From Candidatus Omnitrophota bacterium (GTDB lineage: Bacteria; Omnitrophota; Gorgyraeia; Duberdicusellales; 4484-171): a stretch of DNA of 64,000 nucleotides. The position numbers and the translations under genes were made by a program. Every line of letters starts with the position of its first letter. Position 1 is the first letter of the stretch. Location: contig JBAWWL010000002.1 of the NCBI GenBank assembly GCA_037146775.1, forward strand, positions 198,554 to 262,553, given 5' to 3'. Under the pieces are notes generated by a model that was not told the origin of the DNA, did no database searches, and worked only from the letters and a program-made list of their open reading frames with translations. Below are positions 34,494-59,070 of the stretch, one piece after another.

Positions 34494-34781
34494 AAAGTAT
34501 TCTTCTTCGGCTCATCCGCACGCAGCATATTCTTCCACAAAAGAATTACTTCCCAGAAAGAAACCGCTCATTTCTCGAAACTTTCAGTAGAAAAATCGAA
34601 GTAGTTCAAGATATTCCATGATCGCTAGTTGCATTTTTCTGTCTTCTATTTTATAATTTATATATTTGCAAGACTAAGAAAGTACGTAGTATATAGTACA
34701 GCGTATATAGTATGGAATTGATTGTGTATCTTCGCGATATACGATATACGATGTACTCCTTTTGTTAAGTAAGGTAAAAAA

Positions 34782-39732: not shown

Positions 39733-40575
39733 ATGTTAAAGCGATACATATCAAAAAAAATAATCCAGACTTTACTGCTGTCTTGTATCTGTGGCATTCT
39801 TTGTATCTCCCAGGTACTCGCCGGTGATATTGTTATCTACGGAGATAGCCAGTTTAGTAATGATGCCCAGCGTAAAGTAGTAAGAGCTATCCTAGAATGC
39901 AAGCCCGCAATAGTTTTCCGGGTAGGGGATCTTACGGCAGACGGTCGCAGCCTAAAACAATGGGAAACCTTTCATAAAATCAATGATAAGCTTATACAAA
40001 GTAGCGAATACTTCCCCGCGCTTGGCAATCACGAATATAATTCTGCGCTCTATTTTAGTAATTTTAATCTAGCGCTTGATAAACGGTGGTATTCAGTCCA
40101 GCGCCAAGGCATCCATTTCATTGTCTTAGATAGCAATTCCAGCCTCGATAAAGATTCAGAGCAATACAAGTGGTTAGAGCGAGACTTAAGCAACGTCGGG
40201 AAAGATATCAAATTTCGTATTGCGCTCTTTCATCATCCGTTATTTGATACCGGCTGGCACAAGGAAGACGAGAAAGGGCTAAAGCCTGTTCTTATTCCTT
40301 TATTCGAGAAGTATGGTGTGTCTGTAGTGTTTTCCGGCCATGATCATAATTATCAGCGCTTTAGATATAATGGCATCTTTTATATTATTACCGGCGGAGG
40401 AGGAGCACCTCTTTATGGCCGCCTGCGTAAGAGTTCGTATCTTGAGAAATTCGCTCTCGCATATCATTTTTGTCTGTTGTCTGTAACAGATAATGTGCTG
40501 AAGATTAAAGTGCTTGATACTAAACTGCAAGTTCTTGACGAATTTGATATCAAAGAGAAAGTATATAGTCGATAG
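39733..40575 (+). CDS. Secreted calcineurin-like metallophosphoesterase
   Basis: GDLTADG, GNHEY and FSGHDHNYQR metallophosphoesterase motifs. The ATG at 39733 gives a signal peptide and is preferred over the GTG at 39682. The last codons overlap a GTATATAGT repeat array. Confidence 0.65.
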   Translation: MLKRYISKKIIQTLLLSCICGILCISQVLAGDIVIYGDSQFSNDAQRKVVRAILECKPAIVFRVGDLTADGRSLKQWETFHKINDKLIQSSEYFPALGNHEYNSALYFSNFNLALDKRWYSVQRQGIHFIVLDSNSSLDKDSEQYKWLERDLSNVGKDIKFRIALFHHPLFDTGWHKEDEKGLKPVLIPLFEKYGVSVVFSGHDHNYQRFRYNGIFYIITGGGGAPLYGRLRKSSYLEKFALAYHFCLLSVTDNVLKIKVLDTKLQVLDEFDIKEKVYSR

Positions 40576-40685
40576 TATATAGTCGTGAGTATTGAGTACT
40601 GAGTATATAGTGGGGGAAGGACGTATATAGTATAGAGTACATAGTATATCGTAAACAAACTGGGCGGAGGGTAACGGGGAACTCG

Positions 40686-40764
40686 GTGGACGGTTGCGGT
40701 TACTCGCCTCGATTTGCTCGGCGAAGCGGGCGAAGCTCGTCTCGGTTACGTCTAACGGTAACGT
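40686..40764 (+). repeat. GC-rich ~80-bp element, left copy of an inverted pair bracketing 40.7-45.6 kb
   Basis: ACGGTTGCGGTTACTCGCCTCGATTTGCTCGGCGAAGCGGGCGAAGCTCGTCTCGGTTACGTCTAACGGTAACG is ~90% identical to the reverse complement of 45532-45615. Confidence 0.55.
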
Positions 40765-41065
40765 TTTATAATAAACTCTAAACCAAAATATTTCAAACTC
40801 AAAACACTATTGTTTAGGATTTTGAATTTATGATTTTGGATTTGTTTAGGATTTAGTCCTTCGACTTCGCTCAGGACTAATGGCGAGCACAGTCGAACCA
40901 TTAGAGTTTTCCACCTCCATAATGCACTTATTATGGTGGATCCGCCTAAGTTTTAACGGTGGCGGAAGTGTTTAGGGTTTATTTACCACAACCTCACGAC
41001 TACATACTCTATACTACATACGACATATTATCTCCCTACTGCAATGCTTGACAAGATAATCTGTT

Positions 41066-41644
41066 ATGGTACTTTATTACCATAAACATGGTGACAATAT
41101 GATATCCTTACGTTCAAAAGTGGCAATAAAATTACTGGACTACTATTTTCTTAATCCGGATACTCATGCGTACATCAATGAATTGGCCAGGACATTAGAG
41201 CTTGATCCTAAAAATACCGAAACTAAACTTAAGGAATTTGAGAAAGAAGGCCTTTTTAAAAGCGAATTCCGCGGAAAAGAAAGATATTTCTTTCTCGCAA
41301 AGGATAACCCCGTTTTGGAGCATTACCGCCAGATTTTTCTAAAGACCTATGGTATAGAAAAGAGGCTTCAAGATATGCTGCGGGGGATTAAGGGGCTTAC
41401 GGAAGCATATCTATTCGGTTCATATGCAAGTAACAAGATGAACTCTTCAAGCGATATTGATATCCTAGCTATTGGCACGCACTCTGTTTTAGAATTGCAA
41501 AGATTCATCGCAAAATTGCAGAAAGATGTCGGTAGAGAATTCAATGTAACGAATTTAAACCTAAAGGAATTCGAGGCAAAGAAAAAATGTAAAAACCCTT
41601 TTATAAATAGCGTTTTTAAAACTAAGACTATAAGGCTTATATGA
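41066..41644 (+). CDS. Nucleotidyltransferase (MNT-type antitoxin-like) with an N-terminal winged-helix region
   Basis: The GS...SDIDIL nucleotidyltransferase motif (LFGSYASNKMNSSSDIDILAIG). 4-bp overlap with the downstream HEPN gene. Confidence 0.6.
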   Translation: MVLYYHKHGDNMISLRSKVAIKLLDYYFLNPDTHAYINELARTLELDPKNTETKLKEFEKEGLFKSEFRGKERYFFLAKDNPVLEHYRQIFLKTYGIEKRLQDMLRGIKGLTEAYLFGSYASNKMNSSSDIDILAIGTHSVLELQRFIAKLQKDVGREFNVTNLNLKEFEAKKKCKNPFINSVFKTKTIRLI

Positions 41645-42039
41645 TTAATTTTGAAAGTCAATACTTTCAGAAACTGGCATTTAAAAAGGAGCAAATTGAC
41701 CAATTCGTAAGGTCCGCCCTTCATGATCTTAAGATAGCTCAAAATTCGGATATTGTGGATGTTATCTTTAAGTTCAGTTACGATGCGCTCATAAAATTAG
41801 GTATTGCGCTCATTGCTAAGAAAGGGTACAAAATAAGGAGCACAATCGGTCATCATGTTAAGATACTTGAGAAACTGAGCCAAATACTTGGAGAAGAGGA
41901 TGTCCTCGTGCTTGGCAATAAGATGAGACAGGAACGTAATGTTAATCTTTATGATGGCGGTTTCTTTATTGGAGAGAAAGACAGCCGCGAATATTTGGAT
42001 TTTGTAAAGAAAGTTTTTAAGAAAGCAAGCATAGAATAG
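41641..42039 (+). CDS. HEPN-domain protein (toxin partner of the MNT)
   Basis: Rx4H motif (KIRSTIGHH). All-alpha HEPN-sized protein coupled to the MNT gene. Confidence 0.6.
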   Translation: MINFESQYFQKLAFKKEQIDQFVRSALHDLKIAQNSDIVDVIFKFSYDALIKLGIALIAKKGYKIRSTIGHHVKILEKLSQILGEEDVLVLGNKMRQERNVNLYDGGFFIGEKDSREYLDFVKKVFKKASIE

Positions 42040-42060
42040 TTAGCAAGCACCAACAAGCAT

Positions 42061-42290
42061 TCTTTAATTTTTCTCCCCTTACTATGTACGACATACTCTG
42101 TACTACATACTTTTTTATGTTTAATTTTTCTCCCTCCCATTATCTTTTCCCCGGTTTCAATTTTTAATATTTAATTTTTCTTTTACTCTATACTCATTAC
42201 TCAATGCTCACGACTACATACTATGTACTACATACTCCATGCTACCCATTATTGCCTAATAACCTACCAACATAATAACCTATCAACCAT
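42061..42290 (+). repeat. G-depleted degenerate short-repeat array (TACTACATAC / CCTA(A/C)CAACAT units)
   Basis: ctatgtacgacatactctgtactacatac...cacgactacatactatgtactacatactccatgctacccattattgcctaataacctaccaacataataacctatcaacc. Related arrays occur at 40981-41015, 45340-45480, 45621-45700 and 51170-51250, and on the opposite strand at 34681-34760 and 40561-40655. Confidence 0.5.
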
Positions 42291-42308
42291 TCCAGCTTTC
42301 ATGTTCTC

Positions 42309-42337
42309 TTGACAAAAAGCTACCGTTTATTTACAAT
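42309..42337 (+). promoter_or_regulatory. Sigma70-like promoter TTGACA-17-TACAAT upstream of the P-type ATPase with a ~250-nt structured leader
   Basis: TTGACA at 42309-42314 and TACAAT at 42332-42337. The leader contains hairpins, e.g. GGAACTG-13 nt-CAGTTCC at 42382-42408. Confidence 0.4.
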
Positions 42338-42585
42338 AAACTCCAACAAGGAAGAACAGGTTCTCATGCCGGGTCATTAAATGGAACTGCTGCGTTTCGT
42401 AACAGTTCCTAAATTGGCAGTAGCTTCATGCTACGGGACTTCCTTCAGTTTCAGGTGCCCGGTTTATATATGAGAACAAGTTTTTCCTTTTTATTTTTTA
42501 TCCGCCTTGGTGTAGAAAACTGCAGATATTCATCTTAGCTTTTGCTTGGTGAAGCGGATAAGTTCGTGGAGTTTCATTTAAGTTA

Positions 42586-45177
<2,592 letters not shown>

Positions 45178-45531
45178 AAGAGTGCTTAATATAATAACTA
45201 AAATGGAGTATGCTCCATTATGGTAATACTAATATGGAGGGTGTTTTTACGGGCACTGTGGTCCGGGAAAATAATTTAAGTAGAGGATAGCTGTCCCAAC
45301 CTTTTCTGCATATCAATTCGCTAATCCTTTAACCCTTCCTGTCCTTATATATCCATTTTTAATATTTGATATTTAATATTTAATTTTTCTCCCCCCTTCT
45401 TGCCTAATAACCTATCAACATACCAACCTATCAACCTATATCCTTTTCCCCCCCCTGCTATGTACTACATACGCCATACTACATACGATCTTTCTTTATG
45501 TTTCGCACACGTCATCCGTTATGATGTATGA

Positions 45532-45615
45532 GCCGTTGCCGCTAAACGTAACCGATACGAGCTTCGCCTGCTTCGCCGAGGGAATCGAGGCGAGTAACCG
45601 TAACCGTTCGCCAAG
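45532..45615 (-). repeat. GC-rich ~80-bp element, right (inverted) copy
   Basis: Its reverse complement GCTTGGCGAACGGTTACGGTTACTCGCCTCGATTCCCTCGGCGAAGCAGGCGAAGCTCGTATCGGTTACGTTTAGCGGCAACGG matches 40686-40764. Confidence 0.55.
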
Positions 45616-45919
45616 CTTGCCTACTATGTAATCTATACTCCGTACTACCCATTATTGCCTACTAACCTATCAACATACTCACCTATTAACCATTATAGTT
45701 AATTCATAAAAAAACTATTGACATCTTTTTATATAATGTTAAATTAAAGTAACGGTTTTTTTTAATGAGGCAGCAACTTTTCAAGCCTATAGGCAAAGAA
45801 AAATTGCTTAGCCGAATTAATCCGACGAGGCTGCTAAAATTATGGTAGAGGATTTTAGCGTATGTAAGTCCGAGTCGGGATATGTACAGAAATTATATTA
45901 AGGATAAAAAAGGAGGGGT

Positions 45920-50830: not shown

Positions 50831-53533
50831 GTGGTGTGCAGAGAAGATTTCAATCAATCCTCACGTAAATCCAATTCTTTCATATTTAAAATCACCTTAT
50901 TCAGTGCTATTCTTCTAATTCCACTTGTTGCCTCTACTGAATATCTTTGGGCAATCAGCTTCATCATTCTTTTAGGAAGTATTACCTTATTGGTGATTGC
51001 CTTGGATATTTTTCATTCCAAGCGCATTGAATTTATTCCAACCTTCATTCTTCCCCTTATTTTATTTTTACTCATCTATTTTCTCATCACCCTAATATCT
51101 CTCCCAGCCTTTATTTTGCAATTTCTCTCCCTCCGTGCCTTCGCTATCTATAGCAACTATTTGCCCCCCGCTTCGCCTACCAACCTACCAACATCTTTGT
51201 ATACCAACATACCAACATATCAACCTACTAACCTATTTACCCTTTATCCTATTAGCCTATACCCACACAATACGCTCGTAGGCTTAGGTGTAGCACTATC
51301 TTTTTTCGCCATATTTCTATTCCTCATTAATAATCTCGACAGTTTTCGTTTAAGGATAAAGATAGTAAAAACAATTATTTTTTCTGCTACTCTCGTAACT
51401 TGCTTAGGAATTATTAATATGCTAATTCAGAATAAAAAATTGTTCTGGTTTATAGATATAATATCCGGTACACCCACAGGCCCTTTTATTAATACCATTC
51501 ACTTCGCCTCATTCGTGGCGCTCTATATACCTTTGGTATTGGGCATATGGGTTGGTAAAATTGATTTTCATATAAAAGATTGTAAATTCGGCAAAGCTAA
51601 GTCAATGCTCTATAAGTTCATAATATTTATAAAAAATTCAATTATCTATTTACTCCCGGCTTTGTTGATGATATTCGCTTTATTTAAGTCGCTTTCCCGC
51701 GGAGCAATGTTAGCTTTTTGTACTTCAATGTTTATCTTTGTATTGCTTATAGCTTTTAAATCAAAAACTCGTCTACGCGCTATCATTCTTCTAGTTTTTA
51801 CTTTTTCGTTTTTAGCTTTGACTTTCTATGTCGACTCGTTTAATATCAAATCCAAAATATTGTCATTAACCAATAGTCAAGGCGAAAACGCCATATTCAA
51901 CCAAGATATAACAGAAAGAATTTCTACACTTAAACACCCGTTGCAAACCGATAGTGCAAAGACGCGTTTTAGTGTTTGGCGTGATACTCTTAAGATATTT
52001 TCTGATTTTCCGTTATTTGGCACAGGCCTAAATACTTTTAGCATTATTTTTCCTAAATATAAGACTATCTATGGTTCTGGAAAAATGTTTTTTACTCACT
52101 CCGAGAATGATTATGTTGAAACTCTATCTGAAGTTGGTTTATTAGGTATAATACCAATATTATTAATCTTGATAATCTTTTTAAGAAACACATTCATAAA
52201 TTTTAAATTAGAAACCGACTCTCTAAAAATTGGTATTATTTCTGGTGGCATCGCTTCCGTTTTTGCGCTTCTTTTTTGCGCATTAACCGATTTTTCTTTC
52301 CATATCCCTTCTGTTAGTTTTATTTTTATGCTTATCTGTTTCGTAATTTGGCCAAAGACAAAAAAAAGAAAAATTATCTCATTTAATGATATGGTGGGCA
52401 GGAAGAAACCTATAGCTATTGTGGTATTGCTATTTTTAGTGGCAATATTTATGTTTATATTTTCTGTTCAACTATTATTAGGCGAAATATATTTCTATAA
52501 ATTTAATTATTCTCAAGATAGCTTTCAGGTTAAACAAAACTATATTAAAAAAGCTGTCTTTTTTAATAATGGTAATGCGGAATATAGGTACTCTTTAGGA
52601 AAAATTTATTTTGATCAAGCGACTTTGCTAAGGAATAAAGATGAAGCTGCAGCTTTAGAGCTTATCAAACAGGCGAAAACAGAATTTGAAAAAGCGATAA
52701 TTTTGCAACCTACTCATTGGAAGTACCATTTTTTTAACGGCTCAGCTGAACTTATTCTTGTTTCTTCTCGGGTCAAGGGCTATTCTTTTAACAATGCTGA
52801 ATCTTCCTTTGAAAAAGCCTTAAGTCTAAATCCTACAGAATACGATATATACGGTTATTTAGCTAATTACTATTTGCCTTTTGATTCAGAAAAAGCATTT
52901 AAGTATTATCGTAAGCTTATCATGCTTAGGCCATATTATTTAGGTAGTATATTAGATACTATTTGGAAAATAAACAATAATCCTGACTTTATCCGAGAAG
53001 CCATTCCCAGTACTCCAAGGTTAATAGCGCAATACGCTGATTTTTTAAAATCTAAAGGTATCAATTCTGCTAAATTCTATAAAGAATCTGCTTTTCTCGC
53101 GTCTCCTTCCGCAAAAAATAAAGAAGACCAACTTGCTATCGCCCAAAAGCTCGCTCTTTCCAATGGTTTCAAGGACGCTTTTGATTATTTCCTTGATTCT
53201 TTACAGTCAAGTAGCTTTTTCCAAAAGAATAAAGAACAATTTATCATCCCGACATATTCTAGTGAACAACTTATAAAAGAAGAGGAGAATGTCAGCACAT
53301 TACAAAAAACACTTTCTCCCGACGATCCTCAGCTAACATATAAATTAGCCCTTTTCCATTATCAGCTAAAGGACTATAATAAAGCTTCTGAATACTTTAT
53401 GAAATTACTAAAAATCTCTCCCAACAACCCCTTTCTGCGCTTCCACCTCGCTATGGCATTGTATAAGAGGGGAGAGCATAAAGAGGCGTACGAGGAGCTC
53501 AGGCAGGCTATTACTTTGATTAATGACAGATGA
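50831..53533 (+). CDS. O-antigen ligase/polymerase-like (Wzy_C) polytopic membrane protein with a C-terminal TPR domain; start uncertain
   Basis: Many TM helices then a TPR-like C-terminus (YFMKLLKISPNNPFLRFHLAMALYKRGEHKEAYEEL). The first ~140 codons include a repeat-derived low-complexity stretch (PTNLPTSLYTNIPTYQPTNL) encoded by the CCAACMTA array at 51170-51250. Confidence 0.55.
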   Translation: MVCREDFNQSSRKSNSFIFKITLFSAILLIPLVASTEYLWAISFIILLGSITLLVIALDIFHSKRIEFIPTFILPLILFLLIYFLITLISLPAFILQFLSLRAFAIYSNYLPPASPTNLPTSLYTNIPTYQPTNLFTLYPISLYPHNTLVGLGVALSFFAIFLFLINNLDSFRLRIKIVKTIIFSATLVTCLGIINMLIQNKKLFWFIDIISGTPTGPFINTIHFASFVALYIPLVLGIWVGKIDFHIKDCKFGKAKSMLYKFIIFIKNSIIYLLPALLMIFALFKSLSRGAMLAFCTSMFIFVLLIAFKSKTRLRAIILLVFTFSFLALTFYVDSFNIKSKILSLTNSQGENAIFNQDITERISTLKHPLQTDSAKTRFSVWRDTLKIFSDFPLFGTGLNTFSIIFPKYKTIYGSGKMFFTHSENDYVETLSEVGLLGIIPILLILIIFLRNTFINFKLETDSLKIGIISGGIASVFALLFCALTDFSFHIPSVSFIFMLICFVIWPKTKKRKIISFNDMVGRKKPIAIVVLLFLVAIFMFIFSVQLLLGEIYFYKFNYSQDSFQVKQNYIKKAVFFNNGNAEYRYSLGKIYFDQATLLRNKDEAAALELIKQAKTEFEKAIILQPTHWKYHFFNGSAELILVSSRVKGYSFNNAESSFEKALSLNPTEYDIYGYLANYYLPFDSEKAFKYYRKLIMLRPYYLGSILDTIWKINNNPDFIREAIPSTPRLIAQYADFLKSKGINSAKFYKESAFLASPSAKNKEDQLAIAQKLALSNGFKDAFDYFLDSLQSSSFFQKNKEQFIIPTYSSEQLIKEEENVSTLQKTLSPDDPQLTYKLALFHYQLKDYNKASEYFMKLLKISPNNPFLRFHLAMALYKRGEHKEAYEELRQAITLINDR

Positions 53534-53542
53534 CAAGATATA

Positions 53543-53566
53543 CAATGACAAATTACAAAGCTCAAA
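53543..53566 (+). repeat. Left arm of a ~24-bp inverted repeat bracketing 4HB gene 1 (partner at ~54016-54039)
   Basis: AATGACAAATTACAAAGCTCAAAT versus the reverse complement of downstream ATTTGAATTTTGTACTTTGTCATT (21/24). Additional ATGACAA copies upstream and TTTGTCAT copies downstream. Confidence 0.5.
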
Positions 53567-53615
53567 TGACAAATAATATCAGACTAACAAAAGTCACTTA
53601 ATAACAAAGGTCAAA

Positions 53616-53987
53616 ATGGAAATGACAAAAGGTATAGTTGGAGATAATAAATTTGACCTTGAAGGTAGAACGTTGATTTTTGCTAAAAATTGCATTGATT
53701 TGTGTAAAATGTTGATGTGCGACACTATAAACAGGGAATTAATAAGCCAGCTTGTAAGGGCTTCTGGCTCAGTAGGTGCAAACTATCGAGAAGCGAACGA
53801 AGCTCTAACAAAAAAAGATTTTTTCCACCGCATTGGAATATGCAGAAAAGAGGCTAAGGAAAGCAAATACTGGTTAGAATTATTGTCACATACTAATCCA
53901 AAGCTTTCTAATAAAATTGAGGTATTAGCTGACGAAGCATTGCAATTAGCGCGTATTTTCTCAGCTATAGTAAAAAAACGCGTCTAG
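53616..53987 (+). CDS. Four-helix-bundle protein (PF05635/TIGR02436 family: 23S rRNA IVS protein / DGR Avd-like)
   Basis: QLVRASGSVGANYREA..KKDF...CRKEAKESKYWLELL matches the family consensus. It is paralogous to 55638-56003 and 57310-57711. Confidence 0.65.
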   Translation: MEMTKGIVGDNKFDLEGRTLIFAKNCIDLCKMLMCDTINRELISQLVRASGSVGANYREANEALTKKDFFHRIGICRKEAKESKYWLELLSHTNPKLSNKIEVLADEALQLARIFSAIVKKRV

Positions 53988-54127
53988 TTTTTCCTTTCGT
54001 ACTTTTTTGTTATTTGAATTTTGTACTTTGTCATTAACCAATATTTGACATTTGAATTTTGTAATTTGTTCTTAGTTCATTTGTCCTTTGTGCTTTGTCA
54101 TTTGTCATTTTAACCGTAGGTTAACCC

Positions 54128-55519
54128 ATGTTCATAAGTAGTCGTAAATCGTTTCTCACCGGCAAGTCCAAGCTTATCTTCATCGATATTCTGGCTCTGT
54201 GTCTTTCTGTTTATTTAGCAACTATTATTCGAATTGGCTGGGAAGACGCAAATCGTTATATCAGCTTAAAGCTCTTGCCTCTTGGTTTCGGTATTTTTAT
54301 CTTTCTTACCTTATTTTATCTTCATGGTTTATATGAACTGCATTTTTTTGATACTTACTTAAAGCTTATCTCACGAGTAATATCTGCAGTTCTCCTTGGT
54401 ATTTTAATCTATACTTTTATTTTTTATGCTGTATTTACGTTTGCTATAGGTAGAGGTGTATTTACCTTAATGGCATTGCTCATCGCTACATTTGTTTTTT
54501 TCCCCAGAATATTTTATATCTCGGTTGCCAAAAGAAATATTTTAGGTGAAAAAGTAATTATAGTAGGTACTGGTGAAGCAGCTTTTGACATCATCAATAT
54601 TATAGATAAGCACCCCACTTGTCCTTATAGAATAATCGGTGTTATTAGTGAAAAAGAAAAAGAAACTATCTCTAGCTTTGGGCACCATCAACTTATGGGT
54701 TCCATTGATGATATTGATCAAATCGCCGAGCAAAATAAAATTGACACAATCATAATTACAACTCTAGAGCCAAGGCGTTCCAAAATATTAAAACATTTAA
54801 GAGTATGTCGTTATCATGGTGTGCGTATTATCGATAGTGTTTCTTTATATGAAGAGATTGAGGGTAGAGTTCCTCTGCAATATATAGATGATGAATGGCT
54901 ATTTTCTTCCAACATGAATTATTCTAACTTTCACATCAAAAAATTAAAAAGGTTAATGGATATTATTGGTTCTTCGATTGGTATTATTCTCGTTTTCCCT
55001 TTATGCCTTGTCGTGAGTATTCTTATCAAGTTTGATTCAATCGGGCCTATTTTCTATCGACAAAAAAGATTAAGTCGAGATGGCAGGATTTTTCGCTTGC
55101 TCAAATTTCGCTCAATGATTCATCGTGCCGAGCGAGGATTGGGCGGTCCGGTGTGGTCACAAACAAATGATAACCGTATCACTCGAGTGGGTAAATGGAT
55201 GCGTAAAACTAGAATTGATGAAATTCCCCAGCTTATTAATGTGTTTTTAGGCCACATGAGTCTAGTGGGTCCTCGACCTGAACGCCCCGCTTTTATTAAA
55301 GAACTATCTGAAAAAATTCCCTTTTACTTAGAAAGGCTTTACGTTCAACCTGGCTTAACCGGCTGGGCGCAAATTAACTATCCTTATACCGCTACAATAG
55401 AGGAGTCAAGAATAAAACTGCAATACGATTTATACTACATCAAACACGTCTCCTTTTTGTTAGACTGCCTTATTCTATTGAAAACCATCAAAATCGTCCT
55501 TCTCAGCCGCGGCCGTTAG
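54128..55519 (+). CDS. Undecaprenyl-phosphate sugar phosphotransferase (WbaP/WcaJ-type priming glycosyltransferase)
   Basis: Five TM helices, then a C-terminal bacterial sugar transferase domain ([25 protein letters not shown]...[21 protein letters not shown]). Confidence 0.8.
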
Positions 55520-55602
55520 CTATTTACCCATATAAACCCTGTCTTATTTCCGACGTGGATTGTATTGACGCATTGTGATATGTTATGATATAATTAAAAC
55601 TT

Positions 55603-55616
55603 AAAAGTAAAAAGTC
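55603..55616 (+). repeat. Left arm of a 14-bp inverted repeat bracketing 4HB gene 2 (partner at ~56022-56036), with further TTTTAACTTTT / TTTACCTTTTTCGTTTTAAC tandem copies downstream to 56180
   Basis: TTAAAAGTAAAAAG upstream. CTTTTTACTTTTAA downstream. Confidence 0.45.
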
Positions 55617-55637
55617 AAAACTAAAAATATAAGTTAA

Positions 55638-56003
55638 ATGGAGAATAAAGTTTACGATTTAAAGAAACGTACGTATGTGTTTGCTTTAGATGTTATTAGG
55701 TTTCTTGAAAGTTTACCAAAGGATTATATTTCTATTGTTATCGGGAAACAGTTGTTACGCTCAGCAACTTCTGTGGGAGCGAATGTGGTCGAGGCGCAGG
55801 CTTCTAGCTCCAAGAAGGATTTTATAAATTTCTATAATTATTCATTAAAATCCGCAAACGAAACAATATTCTGGCTAAGTTTACTTAAGGATGCAAATAG
55901 AGATCCTAATCAGAAAATACCTCTTCTTCTAAGCGAAACACAGCAGCTCTCAAAAATTCTTGCTGCAAGCATTCTGACAATGAAAGGAAAGAGAAAGCCT
56001 TGA
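55638..56003 (+). CDS. Four-helix-bundle protein (PF05635 family), paralogue 2
   Basis: QLLRSATSVGANVVEAQ..SKKDF..NETIFWLSLL. Confidence 0.65.
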   Translation: MENKVYDLKKRTYVFALDVIRFLESLPKDYISIVIGKQLLRSATSVGANVVEAQASSSKKDFINFYNYSLKSANETIFWLSLLKDANRDPNQKIPLLLSETQQLSKILAASILTMKGKRKP

Positions 56004-56182
56004 ATTTAAATTTTCGCTCTAACTTTTTACTTTTAACTTATTTTATTCAGTGGATTACTTTTTCGCGTTTTGATTTTTAACTTTTACCTTTATTTCGTTT
56101 TACCTTTTTCGTTTTAACTTTTAACGTTTCTGTTCAAAGTATTCACTTTTACCTTTTTCGTTTTAACTTTTAACTTAATAAT

Positions 56183-56419
56183 ATGACCGTCAACGATAAT
56201 GAAATCTACACCTTAGAAGAAGCTCAGTCTATATTAAAGATCAGTCGCTCCACCCTATTGCGTCTTATCAAGAAAGGTCTAATTAAAACCGCAAAAGTCG
56301 GCCGTCAATATCGAATCTGGGGTAATGAAATTCTGCACATCATGTCCCCATCTTTAGAAGGCAAAGTCCGTAAAGAGTATAGGAAAAGTAGGGAATGGTT
56401 GTATAAAGGCATAAGTTGA
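56183..56419 (+). CDS. Excisionase-family / MerR-like helix-turn-helix DNA-binding protein
   Basis: YTLEEAQSILKISRSTLLRLIKKGLIKTAKVGRQYRI matches the excisionase-family DNA-binding domain pattern. Confidence 0.5.
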   Translation: MTVNDNEIYTLEEAQSILKISRSTLLRLIKKGLIKTAKVGRQYRIWGNEILHIMSPSLEGKVRKEYRKSREWLYKGIS

Positions 56420-56452
56420 TAGGCCTTATGTTTTTAGGCATAGGAGGTTAAT

Positions 56453-57286
56453 TTGGACAACACTTCGCAAAAAACTATTGTTATCGAAGCAGGCCGGACG
56501 AGGGGATTATATTGGAGAGATCTTTGGCATTATCGTGCATTATTTTATTTCTTATCTTGGCGGGACATTCTTGTCAGGTATAAACAAACAGTTATTGGTA
56601 TTGCTTGGAGCGTTATCAGGCCATTGCTTACCATGGTTGTCTTCACTTTTGTATTCAGCAAATTAGCGAAATTTCCTTCTGAAGGCGTTCCATATCCTAT
56701 CCTGGTCTTTACCGCTATGCTTCCTTGGCAATTTTTTGCGAATGCTCTTAGCGAAAGCAGTAATTCCCTTATTACTAACGCTAATATGCTTACCAAAGTT
56801 TATTTTCCGCGGCTCATCGTTCCCGTAAGCACCATTATCGTTTGTCTAGTTGATTTTATTATATCATTGTTACTTCTTGTTGTGCTTATGGTGATATATA
56901 AGTTTACCCCTTCTTTAAATATTTTAATACTGCCACTATTTCTTCTTCTGTTGCTGATTTTTTCTCTTGGTCTAGGTCTTTATATATCAGCATTAAATGT
57001 AAAGTATAGAGATTTCCGTTACGTCGTTCCTTTTATCGTCCAGTTCGGACTTTATATTTCACCCGTTGGTTTTAGCTCAAGCGTTGTTCCTGATAAGTGG
57101 AAATTATTTTATTATTTGAATCCAATGGTAGGAATAATTGATAGTTTCAGATGGGCAATCCTTGGAGAGAGTGTTCATATCTATTGGCCGGGATTTATCC
57201 TTTCTATTATCTTATCTGTAGTTATTTTCATTTTTGGTTTACTGTATTTTCGTAAAACCGAACGCACGTTTGCTGATATTATATAA
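56453..57286 (+). CDS. ABC-2 type polysaccharide export permease (Wzm/KpsM-like)
   Basis: GLYWRDLWHYRALFYFLSWRDILVRYKQTVIGIAWSVIRPLL and six TM helices. Confidence 0.7.
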   Translation: MDNTSQKTIVIEAGRTRGLYWRDLWHYRALFYFLSWRDILVRYKQTVIGIAWSVIRPLLTMVVFTFVFSKLAKFPSEGVPYPILVFTAMLPWQFFANALSESSNSLITNANMLTKVYFPRLIVPVSTIIVCLVDFIISLLLLVVLMVIYKFTPSLNILILPLFLLLLLIFSLGLGLYISALNVKYRDFRYVVPFIVQFGLYISPVGFSSSVVPDKWKLFYYLNPMVGIIDSFRWAILGESVHIYWPGFILSIILSVVIFIFGLLYFRKTERTFADII

Positions 57287-57300
57287 TGAATTCTTTGTTA

Positions 57301-57326
57301 TAGTTACCAATGTCCAATGAGCTAAT
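57301..57326 (+). repeat. Left arm of a ~25-bp inverted repeat bracketing 4HB gene 3 (partner at ~57757-57781)
   Basis: CAATGTCCAATGAGCTAATGACGAAT versus the reverse complement of downstream ATTCGTCATTCGGATTTGGACATTG, which is CAATGTCCAAATCCGAATGACGAAT. Confidence 0.55.
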
Positions 57327-57711
57327 GACGAATAAAATATCAATGATTCAAGCCAACAATAGTAAATACGATTTACGTGAGCGAACAGCAAAGTTTGGCG
57401 AAAATGTCATTAATTTTGCTAAAAGAATTCCAGAGTCTACTATAAACCGGCCCTTGATAAGTCAGTTAGTAAGAGCGGCTACAAGCGTGGGCGCAAATTA
57501 CTGCGAAGCAGATGATGCTACCACTAAGAAGGATTTCCTATACAGAATTGCTGTGTGCAGAAAGGAGTCTAAAGAGTCCAAGCATTGGTTGCGGATGGTA
57601 ACGATGGCTATTCCGGCGTTGAAGGATGAAGCGAATTTGTTATCTAATGAAGCGCAGGAATTGAATCTTATTTTTTCTGCGATTATCAATAAAGGAAAAG
57701 CTAAATCTTGA
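57310..57711 (+). CDS. Four-helix-bundle protein (PF05635 family), paralogue 3
   Basis: QLVRAATSVGANYCEA..KKDF..CRKESKESKHWLRMV. Confidence 0.65.
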   Translation: MSNELMTNKISMIQANNSKYDLRERTAKFGENVINFAKRIPESTINRPLISQLVRAATSVGANYCEADDATTKKDFLYRIAVCRKESKESKHWLRMVTMAIPALKDEANLLSNEAQELNLIFSAIINKGKAKS

Positions 57712-57810
57712 TAGGCTAATTTGTCATTTTGACTTGTTCATTGGGATTTCAGTATAGTTCATTCGTCATTCGGATTTGGACATTGTGATTTTAGTTTAGA
57801 CTTTAAGTTT

Positions 57811-59070
57811 ATGAGTACGGTCATCAAAGTCGAAAATCTAGGCAAAAGATACGTTATAAGTCACCAAGAGCAACAGCGCTATCGGACTCTTCGTGATGTT
57901 GTTACTAATAAGTTTAAATCATTCGGCAAGAAGACGGCTTCGACCAAAGAGGAAATATGGGCGCTCAAAAATGTTTCGTTTGAAGTAAAGCAAGGAGAAA
58001 GAGTTGGCATTATCGGAAGGAACGGCGCGGGTAAATCCACTCTGTTAAAGCTATTAAGCAGAATAACCGAACCAACGAAAGGTAAGATTGGGCTGTGCGG
58101 CCGTGTGGGGAGCCTTCTTGAGGTTGGCACCGGTTTTCATCCTGAGTTGACCGGGAGGGAGAATATATATCTTAATGGCGCCATCCTAGGTATGTCAAAA
58201 TCGGACATACGCAAGAAATTTGATGATATTGTTGCTTTCGCGGAAATTGATAAATTTCTTGATACGCCAGTTAAGCGGTATTCGTCAGGAATGTATGTCC
58301 GGCTTGCCTTTGCCGTTGCTGCCCACTTGGAACCAGAGATTCTTTTGGTGGATGAAGTTCTTGCCGTTGGTGACGTCTCATTCCAGAAGAAATGTTTAGG
58401 AAAAATGGAGGATGTGTCTCAAGAGGGCCGGACCCTCCTATTTGTAAGCCACGATCTGGTGGCGGTCAGAAAACTTTGTAAAAGAACTATCCTTTTATGT
58501 GATGGAAAAATAGAGAAAGATGGTTTTACCGACAGCGCTATTGATGCATATTTGAATTATTCCAGGAACGCGACAGAAGGATTGTATTGCTGGAATGAGC
58601 CTGCGGGTCGTCAGAAAGTTTGGCCTGTGCAATTAGAGATATTAGATGAATCGATGAATCGAATATCCAATATTCCTTTCGATAGTGCTGTAACCATAGC
58701 GCTAAGAATTAAAGTGTATGAAGCGTTTAGCTTCCAGGTGAGCCTTCGCATCACTAACAATCTTGCGATTCCCATCTTTTCTACTGAGCCAAGTCAAGAG
58801 CTTATGTTTTATAATCGCGGTTATTATAATTTCTCTCTTAAGTTGCCGTTCGCTTTATTGTCGCCAGGTTATTATCGTGTTGCGTTGGGTATCCATGATC
58901 CAGGAACAGAGGTATTTTTTTTCGAAGAGCAGATATTGTCGTGGCAAGTAATCGAGACGGGTACAAATATGGCAAAATACAAGAAATATCATGAAACAGG
59001 AGTAATTATTGTTGATATTCCCTGGGAAATAATTTATAACAAACAGGATGGCAAAATTGAACCGTGTTAA
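57811..59070 (+). CDS. Polysaccharide ABC exporter ATP-binding protein (Wzt-like) with a C-terminal glycan-binding domain, copy 1
   Basis: Walker A GRNGAGKST, signature YSSGMYVRLAFA, Walker B LLVDEVLAVGD, plus a ~200-aa beta-rich C-terminal extension (Wzt_C-like). Confidence 0.8.
   Translation: MSTVIKVENLGKRYVISHQEQQRYRTLRDVVTNKFKSFGKKTASTKEEIWALKNVSFEVKQGERVGIIGRNGAGKSTLLKLLSRITEPTKGKIGLCGRVGSLLEVGTGFHPELTGRENIYLNGAILGMSKSDIRKKFDDIVAFAEIDKFLDTPVKRYSSGMYVRLAFAVAAHLEPEILLVDEVLAVGDVSFQKKCLGKMEDVSQEGRTLLFVSHDLVAVRKLCKRTILLCDGKIEKDGFTDSAIDAYLNYSRNATEGLYCWNEPAGRQKVWPVQLEILDESMNRISNIPFDSAVTIALRIKVYEAFSFQVSLRITNNLAIPIFSTEPSQELMFYNRGYYNFSLKLPFALLSPGYYRVALGIHDPGTEVFFFEEQILSWQVIETGTNMAKYKKYHETGVIIVDIPWEIIYNKQDGKIEPC

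Follow-up and report, generated by a model that had tools for sequence, protein, structure and literature searches.

Results

A four-helix-bundle gene between complementary heptad arrays

The stretch of DNA analysed here (the window) comprises 64,000 nt of a metagenome-assembled genome (MAG) of Candidatus Omnitrophota bacterium and includes an exopolysaccharide (EPS) operon. Between two genes of this operon lies a small unit, which we term cassette 1 (~53517-54112, + strand), where a gene for a four-helix-bundle (4HB) protein is placed between a 5′ array of seven-nucleotide words and a complementary 3′ array. The upstream neighbour is a host open reading frame (ORF) of 900 aa (50831-53533, + strand) with a Wzy_C/O-antigen-ligase-like domain and TPR, and the downstream neighbour encodes an EPS polyprenyl glycosylphosphotransferase. 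A first-pass annotation of the window had already described the unit as a cassette with a word array upstream of the 4HB gene and its reverse complement downstream. This description was upheld, and the term cassette is justified because an orthologous operon lacks such units and close homologues of the gene occur, with conserved termini, in unrelated operons. What that annotation had missed is that the words are heptads, that the design is family-wide and that it matches both rRNA intervening sequences (IVSs) and the heptamer hairpins known as short tandemly repeated repetitive (STRR) sequences.

The 5′ arm (53517..53629, + strand) is built of CAAA+NNN words, which in register read CAAATTA CAAAGCT CAAATGA CAAATAA …, and is 52% A. 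Five copies of ATGACA(A/G) had been reported around the start of the gene; all five are present on the + strand (53523, 53530, 53545, 53566 and 53622), the first of them one nucleotide away from the position originally given. Five copies in 106 nt compare with an expectation of 0.011 (Poisson P about 1e-12). The arm includes both the stop codon of the upstream host gene and the 4HB gene's start codon. As had been noted for the end of the ligase-like ORF, the host TGA (53531..53533, + strand) falls inside the second ATGACAA word, and the Wzy ORF ends alike in an orthologous locus, L173 (…INDK* vs …INDR*). The 4HB gene (53616..53987, + strand; 123 aa) probably starts at its second ATG, 53622 (MTKG…), in the last word of the 5′ arm; a homologue, L002, also begins MTKG.

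The 3′ arm (53995..54112, + strand) is an NNN+TTTG array (in register TTATTTG AATTTTG TACTTTG … TGCTTTG TCATTTG) with 58% T. In agreement with the earlier description it contains three copies of TTTGTCAT (54027, 54094 and 54101, at most 121 nt from the stop) and a duplicated ATTTGAATTTTGTA (54012 and 54050); TTGTCAT, found three times in the array, is the complement of the 5′ ATGACAA word. Three units of ~37 nt can be recognised (54006-54036, 54044-54074 and 54080-54110), each complementary to 53544-53576. The TRF program reported period 7 at 53522-53574 (7.4 copies) and at 54043-54110 (9.6 copies). The right junction (54108..54137, + strand) consists of a short palindrome (TTAACCGTAGGTTAAC) and the downstream host start codon at 54128, and this junction plus the final 45 nt of the 3′ arm are conserved in L173.

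An inverted repeat search returned three arm pairs for cassette 1: 53544-53576 / 54003-54035 (33 nt, 85%), 53541-53583 / 54070-54112 (43 nt, 81%) and 53517-53575 / 54042-54100 (59 nt, 71%). Six of the eight copies of ATGACAAA in the 64-kb window fall in the two flanks of the cassette. The duplex between the flanks reached -70.8 kcal/mol, compared with -38.7 +/- 4.6 in dinucleotide shuffles (z = -7.0, 0/300), and RNAfold of 53516-54127, the check suggested with the first-pass annotation, gave z = -5.5 with a closing stem that joins ~53522-53640 to ~53990-54108. The complementarity is therefore well above that expected from AT-rich composition, the trivial explanation that had been raised for it. 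One detail did not survive: a 24-nt match proposed between 53543-53566 and 54016-54039 is complementary at only 5/24 positions, the real partner being 54013-54036 (20/24). Inverted repeats of 30 nt or more whose arms lie no more than 2 kb apart number just seven in the entire window, and five of them lie in cassettes of this kind: three in cassette 1, one in cassette 2 and one in a nucleotidyltransferase (NTase)/HEPN cassette (see below).

The product of the gene belongs to the family TIGR02436 / PF05635 23S_rRNA_IVP. Three such proteins are encoded in the window, with 75.0, 91.1 and 66.0 bits against TIGR02436 (cut-off 24) and 53.1, 75.4 and 46.5 bits against PF05635 (cut-off 33.8). The AlphaFold2 (AF2) model of the first has four helices and a pLDDT of 91. 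Foldseek matched this model to 2RLD and 2GSC (TMt 0.78-0.85) and to Avd, 4DWL/8UBE (TMt 0.74-0.77; TMq 0.67-0.68), at 7-9% sequence identity in the latter case; by phmmer the protein matched 2RLD at 6.5e-15. Its solved structural relatives are pentamers. PF05635 proteins have been described as resembling Avd, which forms part of a ribonucleoprotein with the RNA of diversity-generating retroelements (DGRs) (PMC10053308). Carriage by phages was considered and rejected, since no relative was found in IMG/VR and PHROG gave no match. The sole PADLOC match was a marginal REase_II.

Within 53300-58000 no terminator-like site was found, and just one promoter-like site is a good one (55565); that site is host-conserved and lies outside the cassettes. 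By all signs in the sequence, cassette 1 appears to be promoterless. No rRNA was found either in the window or in the 16 loci that were checked. No Rfam family reached its gathering score anywhere in the window, and Rfam likewise gave nothing for the 16 loci or for a GC-rich insert of L173 described below.

Sister cassettes and other heptad elements in the window

Two further 4HB cassettes lie downstream on the + strand, which places three within 4.2 kb of one operon, among genes for Wzz, Wzy_C, a sugar transferase, HTH_17 and an ABC transporter. The 5′ arm of cassette 2 (55596-56182) is of GTAAAAG type (55598-55637); the 4HB gene occupies 55638-56003 and is followed by an extended 3′ run of the heptads CTTTTAC/TTTTAAC (56004-56182). 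The inverted repeat of this cassette (40 nt, 75%) abuts the ORF. In cassette 3 (57289-57810) the 4HB gene (57310 or 57343 to 57711) lies between complementary arms that read CCAATGTCCAA…AATGACGAAT on the 5′ side and …ATTCGTCATT…TTTGGACATTG… on the 3′ side, with AATGACG / CGTCATT and CCAATGTCCAA / TTTGGACATTG as word pairs. The duplex of these arms had z = -3.5 (0/300) and the whole cassette folds with a closing stem at z = -3.0. Identity among the three proteins is no more than 36-50%, and each cassette uses its own words; what the cassettes share is complementarity, not sequence.

Just 3′ of the sugar transferase gene, and immediately before cassette 2, there is a strong sigma-70-like site (55565-55594; TTGACG-18-TATAAT with TG, 11/12), which is conserved in the orthologue L176 (TTGACA…TACAAT). 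Judged by its sequence it is an internal operon promoter, and it would drive cassette 2 together with the downstream HTH_17/ABC transporter genes.

An element with different cargo and the same layout was found at 40555..42250 (+ strand). Its NTase gene (41066-41644, PF01909) overlaps an ORF of 132 aa (41641-42039) with faint HEPN similarity (E = 0.068), and its arms, 40555-40660 (AGTATAT type) and 42060-42250 (ACTACAT type), pair with z = -9.9 (0/300 shuffles), one arm pair extending over 52 nt at 87%. This element has the cassette architecture, here with toxin-antitoxin-like cargo. In its vicinity, a GC-rich inverted repeat of 89 nt made of GGTAACG-type words (40682-40770 / 45527-45615; 84% complementary, arms 4.7 kb apart) surrounds the NTase/HEPN pair and a P-type ATPase gene (42586-45177), and direct repeats of word-array blocks of 43-73 nt occur at 42068-42291, 45367-45486 and 45622-45694. 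The long leader of the ATPase gene (42300-42585; ~290 nt) contains TTGACA…TACAAT, which resembles a promoter, as well as a GC-rich segment that appears to be structured; no Rfam riboswitch family reached threshold.

Heptad hairpins without any gene are present at 34687-34756 and 40777-40856 (AGTATAT… / …ATATACG; CAAA words directly followed by TTTAGGA/TTTG words), and could be solo arms or cassette remnants. Of the period-7 arrays that TRF reported in the window, over 20 in number, nearly all are intergenic. The heptad arrays of the window are degenerate, with 65-74% matches.

Filled sites, empty sites and homologues in other operons

An orthologous EPS operon, L175, whose sugar transferase is 71% identical, has no 4HB gene at all. 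At the site of cassette 3, between the stop codon of the ABC-2 permease and the Wzt ATPase start codon, it reads TGA-AAAAAT-ATG, a spacer of 6 nt compared with 522 nt in the window. The window and L175 form the sole clean filled/empty pair and are 29% diverged. At the position of cassette 1, the loci L176 and L177 (68% identical) have 20 nt separating the Wzy gene from the sugar transferase gene. L176 was rejected as a precise empty site: the C-terminal TPR part is likewise missing from its Wzy gene, and L176 therefore documents the absence of cassette 1, not an exact empty site. L174 was discarded as well, its contig beginning within the 4HB gene, and a metagenome scan for an empty site with the sugar transferase as query gave an uninformative best match of 39% identity. 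L173 (83% identical) retains cassette 1 with the 4HB gene broken by a GC-rich insert of ~275 nt; this insert (115-390 of the locus), apparently structured, stands in place of the inner 5′ arm and the first 4HB codons.

The proteins most similar to that of cassette 1 (75-78% identical) are encoded in three unrelated operons, always in sense. One gene separates plsY from an RHS toxin gene, another lies within a Tad/T2SSF pilus operon and the third precedes an aminotransferase gene. All three carry homologous arms with conserved termini, TTAATGACAAATG…CATTTGTCATTAA. Many cassette ends show TTAA or TAA…TTA, which is suggestive where the ends are AT-rich and absent from others (L049, L071), but the sequence is palindromic and part of the arm. 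No clear target-site duplication could be established at cassette ends, since TTAA/TA is inseparable from the palindromic arm end. The cassettes encode no transposase and no recombinase, their sole ORF being the 4HB gene. Taken together, these comparisons show that the cassettes are inserted in sense, almost exactly between cistrons, and are present or absent among orthologous operons.

Composite structures were also seen. In L162 (outer AAAGCGC / GCGCTTT) and L165 (outer CCGTAAT / ATTACGG) the arms have two layers around an inner ATGACAA-type pair, which looks like nested insertion or chimeric arms. L165 and L171 encode an identical 4HB protein in the same left context, and their right contexts (a T2SSF gene and a purE-like gene, respectively) diverge directly past the last letters of the 3′ arm (…TTTGACATTAAA). 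This pair, which was not used as evidence, could stem either from a rearrangement where the arm ends or from a chimera that the assembly made through the repeated arm. In the orthologous EPS operons, NTase/NTase_sub_bind (MNT-HEPN-like) genes lie at 6493-7700 of L176 and 4263-4992 of L173, and at the cassette-2 position of L176, GGTAACG / CGTTACC words flank a degraded 4HB gene that belongs to another subtype. This site in the operon has the appearance of a hot spot where small accessory genes gather. A general association of 4HB genes with EPS loci was rejected, as none occurred in 80 sugar-transferase loci (471 kb in total).

The homologues in unrelated operons bring up the possibility that the arms act only in DNA, as terminal inverted repeats or homology arms for mobility, any RNA stem being a by-product. 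Movement would then depend on a recombinase acting in trans, or on homologous recombination with resident gene-less hairpins made of the same words. Conserved termini among relatives in unrelated operons would be expected in that case, as would nested or composite arms, which L162 and L165 have, and the window does contain hairpins without a gene that draw on the same vocabulary (34687-34756 and 40777-40856). Recombination with such solo hairpins would also explain the missing transposase and target-site duplication. On the other hand, the empty site in L175 shows no hairpin, and arms of 30-60 nt made of degenerate words would be poor recombinase sites. At 36-50% identity the three cassettes of the window give no sign of a recent burst, and neither excision junctions nor circles speak directly for movement. 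This account is taken up again in the Discussion.

Flank pairing across the gene family

A scan of one genome per species yielded 80 loci with relatives of the 4HB gene, from Omnitrophota, Patescibacteria, Planctomycetota, Bacteroidota, Desulfobacterota, Verrucomicrobiota and other phyla. Pairing of 145 nt upstream with 150 nt downstream was evaluated in 79 of them and had a median z of -2.7, with 43% of loci below -3. Control flanks shifted by +/-1300 nt had a median of 0.0 and 1.4% below -3 (Mann-Whitney P = 2.6e-20), and the flanks of neighbouring genes a median of -0.06 and 5.9% below -3. Genes and their starts were called automatically; the gene calls were wrong for L012, L046 and L081, and the figure of 43% is therefore conservative, the real one being higher. 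The flanks showed 7-nt periodicity (lag 7, identity 0.41/0.39; lag 14, 0.36; background, 0.26), and AATGAC was enriched 25-fold upstream, with its complement enriched downstream.

The pairing was specific to each cassette: its own 3′ arm was the best partner of the 5′ arm in 20/82 cases, where about 1 is expected, and was among the top 5% of partners in 42/82. A common vocabulary also lets arms pair between cassettes. In 52 well-defined cassettes the 5′ arm extends from -52 to 0 relative to the ATG and the 3′ arm from +13 to +64 past the stop (medians); the outer ends are separated from the upstream host stop by 5 nt and from the downstream host start by 21 nt. A co-oriented neighbour was present upstream in 75/79 loci and downstream in 66/78.

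Perfect heptamer arms in cultured carriers

A tblastn search against plasmids returned 24 records, mostly from Nostocales, where the arms of 4HB cassettes are perfect heptamer microsatellites of STRR type in inverted orientation. N. flagelliforme pNFSY06 has (TAATTCG)x4 on the 5′ side and (TTACGAA)x4 on the 3′ side (duplex z -7.4). In Planktothrix the 5′ arm is (CCCCAAT)x4 (CGTAAAT)x3 and in N. punctiforme pNPUN01 (GGAGGTC/GGAAGTC)n, each with the complement on the 3′ side (z -7.9 and -6.7, respectively), and Nostoc ATCC 53789 combines about 3 units of GTCG[GC]A[GA] type with (CTTGCGA)x20 (z -6.1). Bernardetia carries 18 perfect TTAGTGA units 5′ of the gene and TCACTAA-type words 3′ of it (z -2.6). 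The host loci of the plasmid cassettes are helicase-methyltransferase operons, cas operons and hypothetical operons.

The cassettes of N. flagelliforme and Dolichospermum stand in different contexts, their homology ending exactly at the array ends. Their ORFs are 76% identical (93% at second and 52% at third codon positions), and yet neither arm differs at a single position (100% identity), nor in its copy number of four. In this one cross-genus comparison, the synonymous sites of the ORF are near saturation and the arms are intact. The arms of this pair are therefore under strong constraint or homogenisation and are no decaying relics.

Some further observations concern these replicons. Arrays of (TTACGAA)n are scattered in Nostocales plasmids, and in Tolypothrix PCC 7601 the words of cassette 1 (AATGACAAATGACAAATGACC; ATGACAA/TGACCAA) stand beside (TTACGAA)n. 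At the intercistronic site that holds the 4HB cassette in N. flagelliforme (L182), the plasmids of Nostoc sp. C057 and C052 (L187 and L188) have an unrelated segment of ~290 nt with an antisense ORF of 65 aa; they were rejected as empty sites, a different insert between matching flanks being a replacement. Within cas operons, 4HB genes occur in Anabaena cylindrica PCC 7122 pANACY.01 (L179) and in Pseudanabaena galeata pPg_04 (L183), one of them antisense between cas2 and cas1 and the other in sense between csx2 and cas1. A large clustering screen lists "23S rRNA IVP" as CRISPR-associated (PMC10910872), and the presence of 4HB genes within cas operons may explain this label of the family.

Could arms of this kind have no function at all, being slippage-prone simple sequence repeats (SSRs) in AT-rich intergenic DNA whose complementarity is a compositional accident? 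Heptamer SSRs are over-represented in bacterial intergenic regions, possibly via polymerase slippage (PMC4692102). The 18 perfect units of Bernardetia would suit such an origin, and so would cassette 2, which did not exceed its shuffles. We nevertheless consider it highly improbable. None of 300 shuffles matched the observed pairing of cassettes 1 and 3, and the arms travel together with the ORF. A functionless product of slippage is contradicted by the large family-wide excess over both kinds of control, by the cassette-specific pairing, and by the complete conservation of the Nostocales arms next to third codon positions with 52% identity.

Discussion

Relation to known systems

Each component, whether the gene family, the stems of IVSs or the hairpins of heptamers, was known before. 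In Coxiella, the IVS is an S23p ORF bordered by a 28-bp stem and cleaved by RNase III, and S23p-carrying rRNA IVSs have no promoter of their own, lie in sense in the host transcript, are sporadic and have long been suspected to be mobile (PMC4990558). The 23S rRNA IVSs of Leptospira and Coxiella burnetii resemble our cassettes in having a PF05635-family ORF in the loop, bordered by complementary termini, and in being promoterless, in sense within the host transcript and sporadically distributed. The cassettes differ in that they lie between protein-coding cistrons and not in helix 9, 25 or 45 of 23S rRNA, in that their arms are heptad arrays of 50-120 nt instead of a unique 28-bp stem, and in the presence of three copies within 4.2 kb of one operon. 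As far as its sequence indicates, the locus would work like an rRNA IVS, yet it lies outside rRNA, the location that defines such elements.

STRR sequences are 7-bp tandem repeats of filamentous cyanobacteria that form hairpins between operon genes; their function is unexplained, with transcript stability or translational coupling proposed as roles (PMC2670836). Comparable arrays are the Xanthomonas heptamer GGGAATC, with 70-75 convergent pairs (PMC4692102), and the Beggiatoaceae heptamer repeat TAACTGA (PMC4679880). The cassettes share with them 7-bp tandem units, an intercistronic position in operons and hairpin potential, but the arrays of the window are degenerate and not perfect, their host is an Omnitrophota MAG far from cyanobacteria, and the published descriptions are of repeats or gene-less hairpins whereas the cassette is a gene between inverted arrays. 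Neither PMC4692102 nor PMC4679880 mentions a 4HB/S23 gene between inverted heptamer arrays, and no link between heptamer arrays and PF05635 genes was found in the searchable literature.

Other classes of mobile element were compared feature by feature. Like integron cassettes, the 4HB cassettes are promoterless units with small sense ORFs, expressed from host promoters and polymorphic for presence or absence, and the element varies in sequence and keeps its shape. They differ from them in that the repeat of cassette 1 is split around the ORF instead of forming a single 3′ attC, and in that 4HB cassettes are scattered in ordinary operons, not in arrays adjoining intI/attI. By eye, the ends of cassette 1 contain no RYYYAAC/GTTRRRY core sites; no window-wide search for an integrase was made. 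MITEs (miniature inverted-repeat transposable elements) and the repetitive extragenic palindromes with their REP-associated transposases (REP/RAYT, REPtron) likewise have inverted repeats around a small intergenic unit, with gene-less hairpins coexisting with gene-bearing copies. Terminal inverted repeats, a feature of insertion sequences (ISs) and MITEs, are present in the cassettes; these differ in having neither transposase nor HUH fold, in a cargo that is a four-helix bundle, and in forming no near-identical multi-copy family in the window. The likeness to Avd of DGRs lies in the fold and in distant homology; no reverse transcriptase and no template/variable repeat was seen adjoining the cassettes, whose neighbours are EPS genes. 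On the features tested, the cassette belongs neither to integron cassettes nor to MITE/IS elements or DGRs.

A proposed hairpin cassette in an mRNA operon

We propose that cassette 1 is a promoterless mobile gene cassette of IVS type placed in an mRNA operon, with an Avd-like ORF in the loop of a heptad-repeat hairpin, a reading to which we assign a probability of about 0.5; functional statements about the cassettes are inferences from sequence. Inverted arrays, (CAAANNN)n 5′ of the gene and (NNNTTTG)n 3′ of it, would be the arms of the hairpin. The cassette would be transcribed by read-through from the host operon, and the A/C-rich 5′ arm would then pair with the U/G-rich 3′ arm in the transcript. 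Such pairing may loop the ORF out, occlude the 4HB start codon and bring the two host cistrons back into juxtaposition. By analogy with the rRNA-borne relatives, whose cleavage has been demonstrated by experiment, the long duplex could be a substrate of RNase III, and its processing would allow the insertion to be tolerated in any transcribed context. The arms probably serve, in addition, movement between sites, as homology or as hairpin arms.

Several results weigh against this proposal. The fold of cassette 2 was not above shuffles (z = +0.35) and its duplex reached only z = -1.6 to -1.8, its arms failing to beat the shuffles because they are so A/U-rich. In the survey, z was above -2 in 35% of the 79 loci (at least three of them gene mis-calls), and the polarity of an A-rich 5′ flank and a T-rich 3′ flank held in 64/85 cassettes, not in all. 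One Anabaena cassette is antisense to its cas operon. The Nostocales arms are conserved in sequence and do not covary; that the sequence is kept, and not just the complementarity, points to sequence-specific constraint or homogenisation. Finally, arm mismatches of G.U type and of A.C type were equally frequent (88 vs 91 overall; 20 vs 25 when isolated). This comparison revealed no RNA-specific signature and gave no support for selection at the RNA level; symmetry at the level of DNA fits as well or better.

The mismatch counts, accordingly, favour arms that act only in DNA. So does the homology between the Nostoc and Dolichospermum cassettes, which stops at the array ends. The scattered (TTACGAA)n arrays of Nostocales plasmids also speak for it, as does the different insert that Nostoc C057 and C052 have at the same intercistronic site. 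What mobility in DNA would not need is the bias towards sense orientation and the overlap of an arm with the start codon. We therefore regard arms limited to DNA as plausible but rather unlikely.

The same symmetric mismatch spectrum would also be expected if the heptads were iteron-like binding sites, in double-stranded DNA or in an RNA duplex, for the 4HB oligomer or for a host factor that, bound to both arrays, would autoregulate or package the cassette. The omega repressor, for instance, binds heptad arrays. Strict 7-nt periodicity is in line with such sites, as is the perfect retention of words and copy number across genera while the ORF diverges, and the Avd-like structure, the pentameric relatives and the place of Avd in the DGR ribonucleoprotein (PMC10053308) make an oligomer that binds nucleic acid conceivable. 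Yet the words vary within a protein subfamily of 58-78% identity (ATGACAA, AAGACAA, AATAACC, AAGTACC), the unrelated NTase/HEPN cargo has the same architecture, heptad arrays occur without any 4HB gene, and the family has no known DNA-binding motif. Binding sites seem to us an unlikely explanation, and we retain the hairpin cassette of IVS type as the preferred one.

Implications for operons and for heptamer repeats

The searchable literature appears to contain no description of these parts combined in one cassette, of the generality of that cassette across phyla or of its exact place between cistrons. As a broader conjecture, which we put forward with considerable doubt, heptad-armed 4HB cassettes could be a widespread and undescribed class of transposase-less mobile element, their arms and remnants being the origin of heptamer repeats and the 4HB protein a nucleic-acid partner. 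Were this so, the elements would hop between the intercistronic junctions of operons and also into rRNA helices, where they are seen as IVSs, and they would be a source of STRR-like arrays in cyanobacteria, Xanthomonas, Beggiatoaceae and many uncultured phyla. The cassette would join three loose ends in a single object open to testing: the role of the IVS ORF, the scattered multi-copy genes annotated as "four helix bundle protein", and the role of STRR-type repeats.

Cultured carriers, namely Nostoc punctiforme (NPUN_RS34315 on pNPUN01), N. flagelliforme (COO91_RS42395 on pNFSY06), Planktothrix and Bacteroides thetaiotaomicron (BT_0352), make both the RNA-stem/RNase III and the mobility hypotheses directly testable. 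The design of the cassette tolerates insertion exactly between translationally adjacent cistrons, a tolerance relevant to the way operons take up new genes and to the ways in which selfish genes may ride on host transcription.

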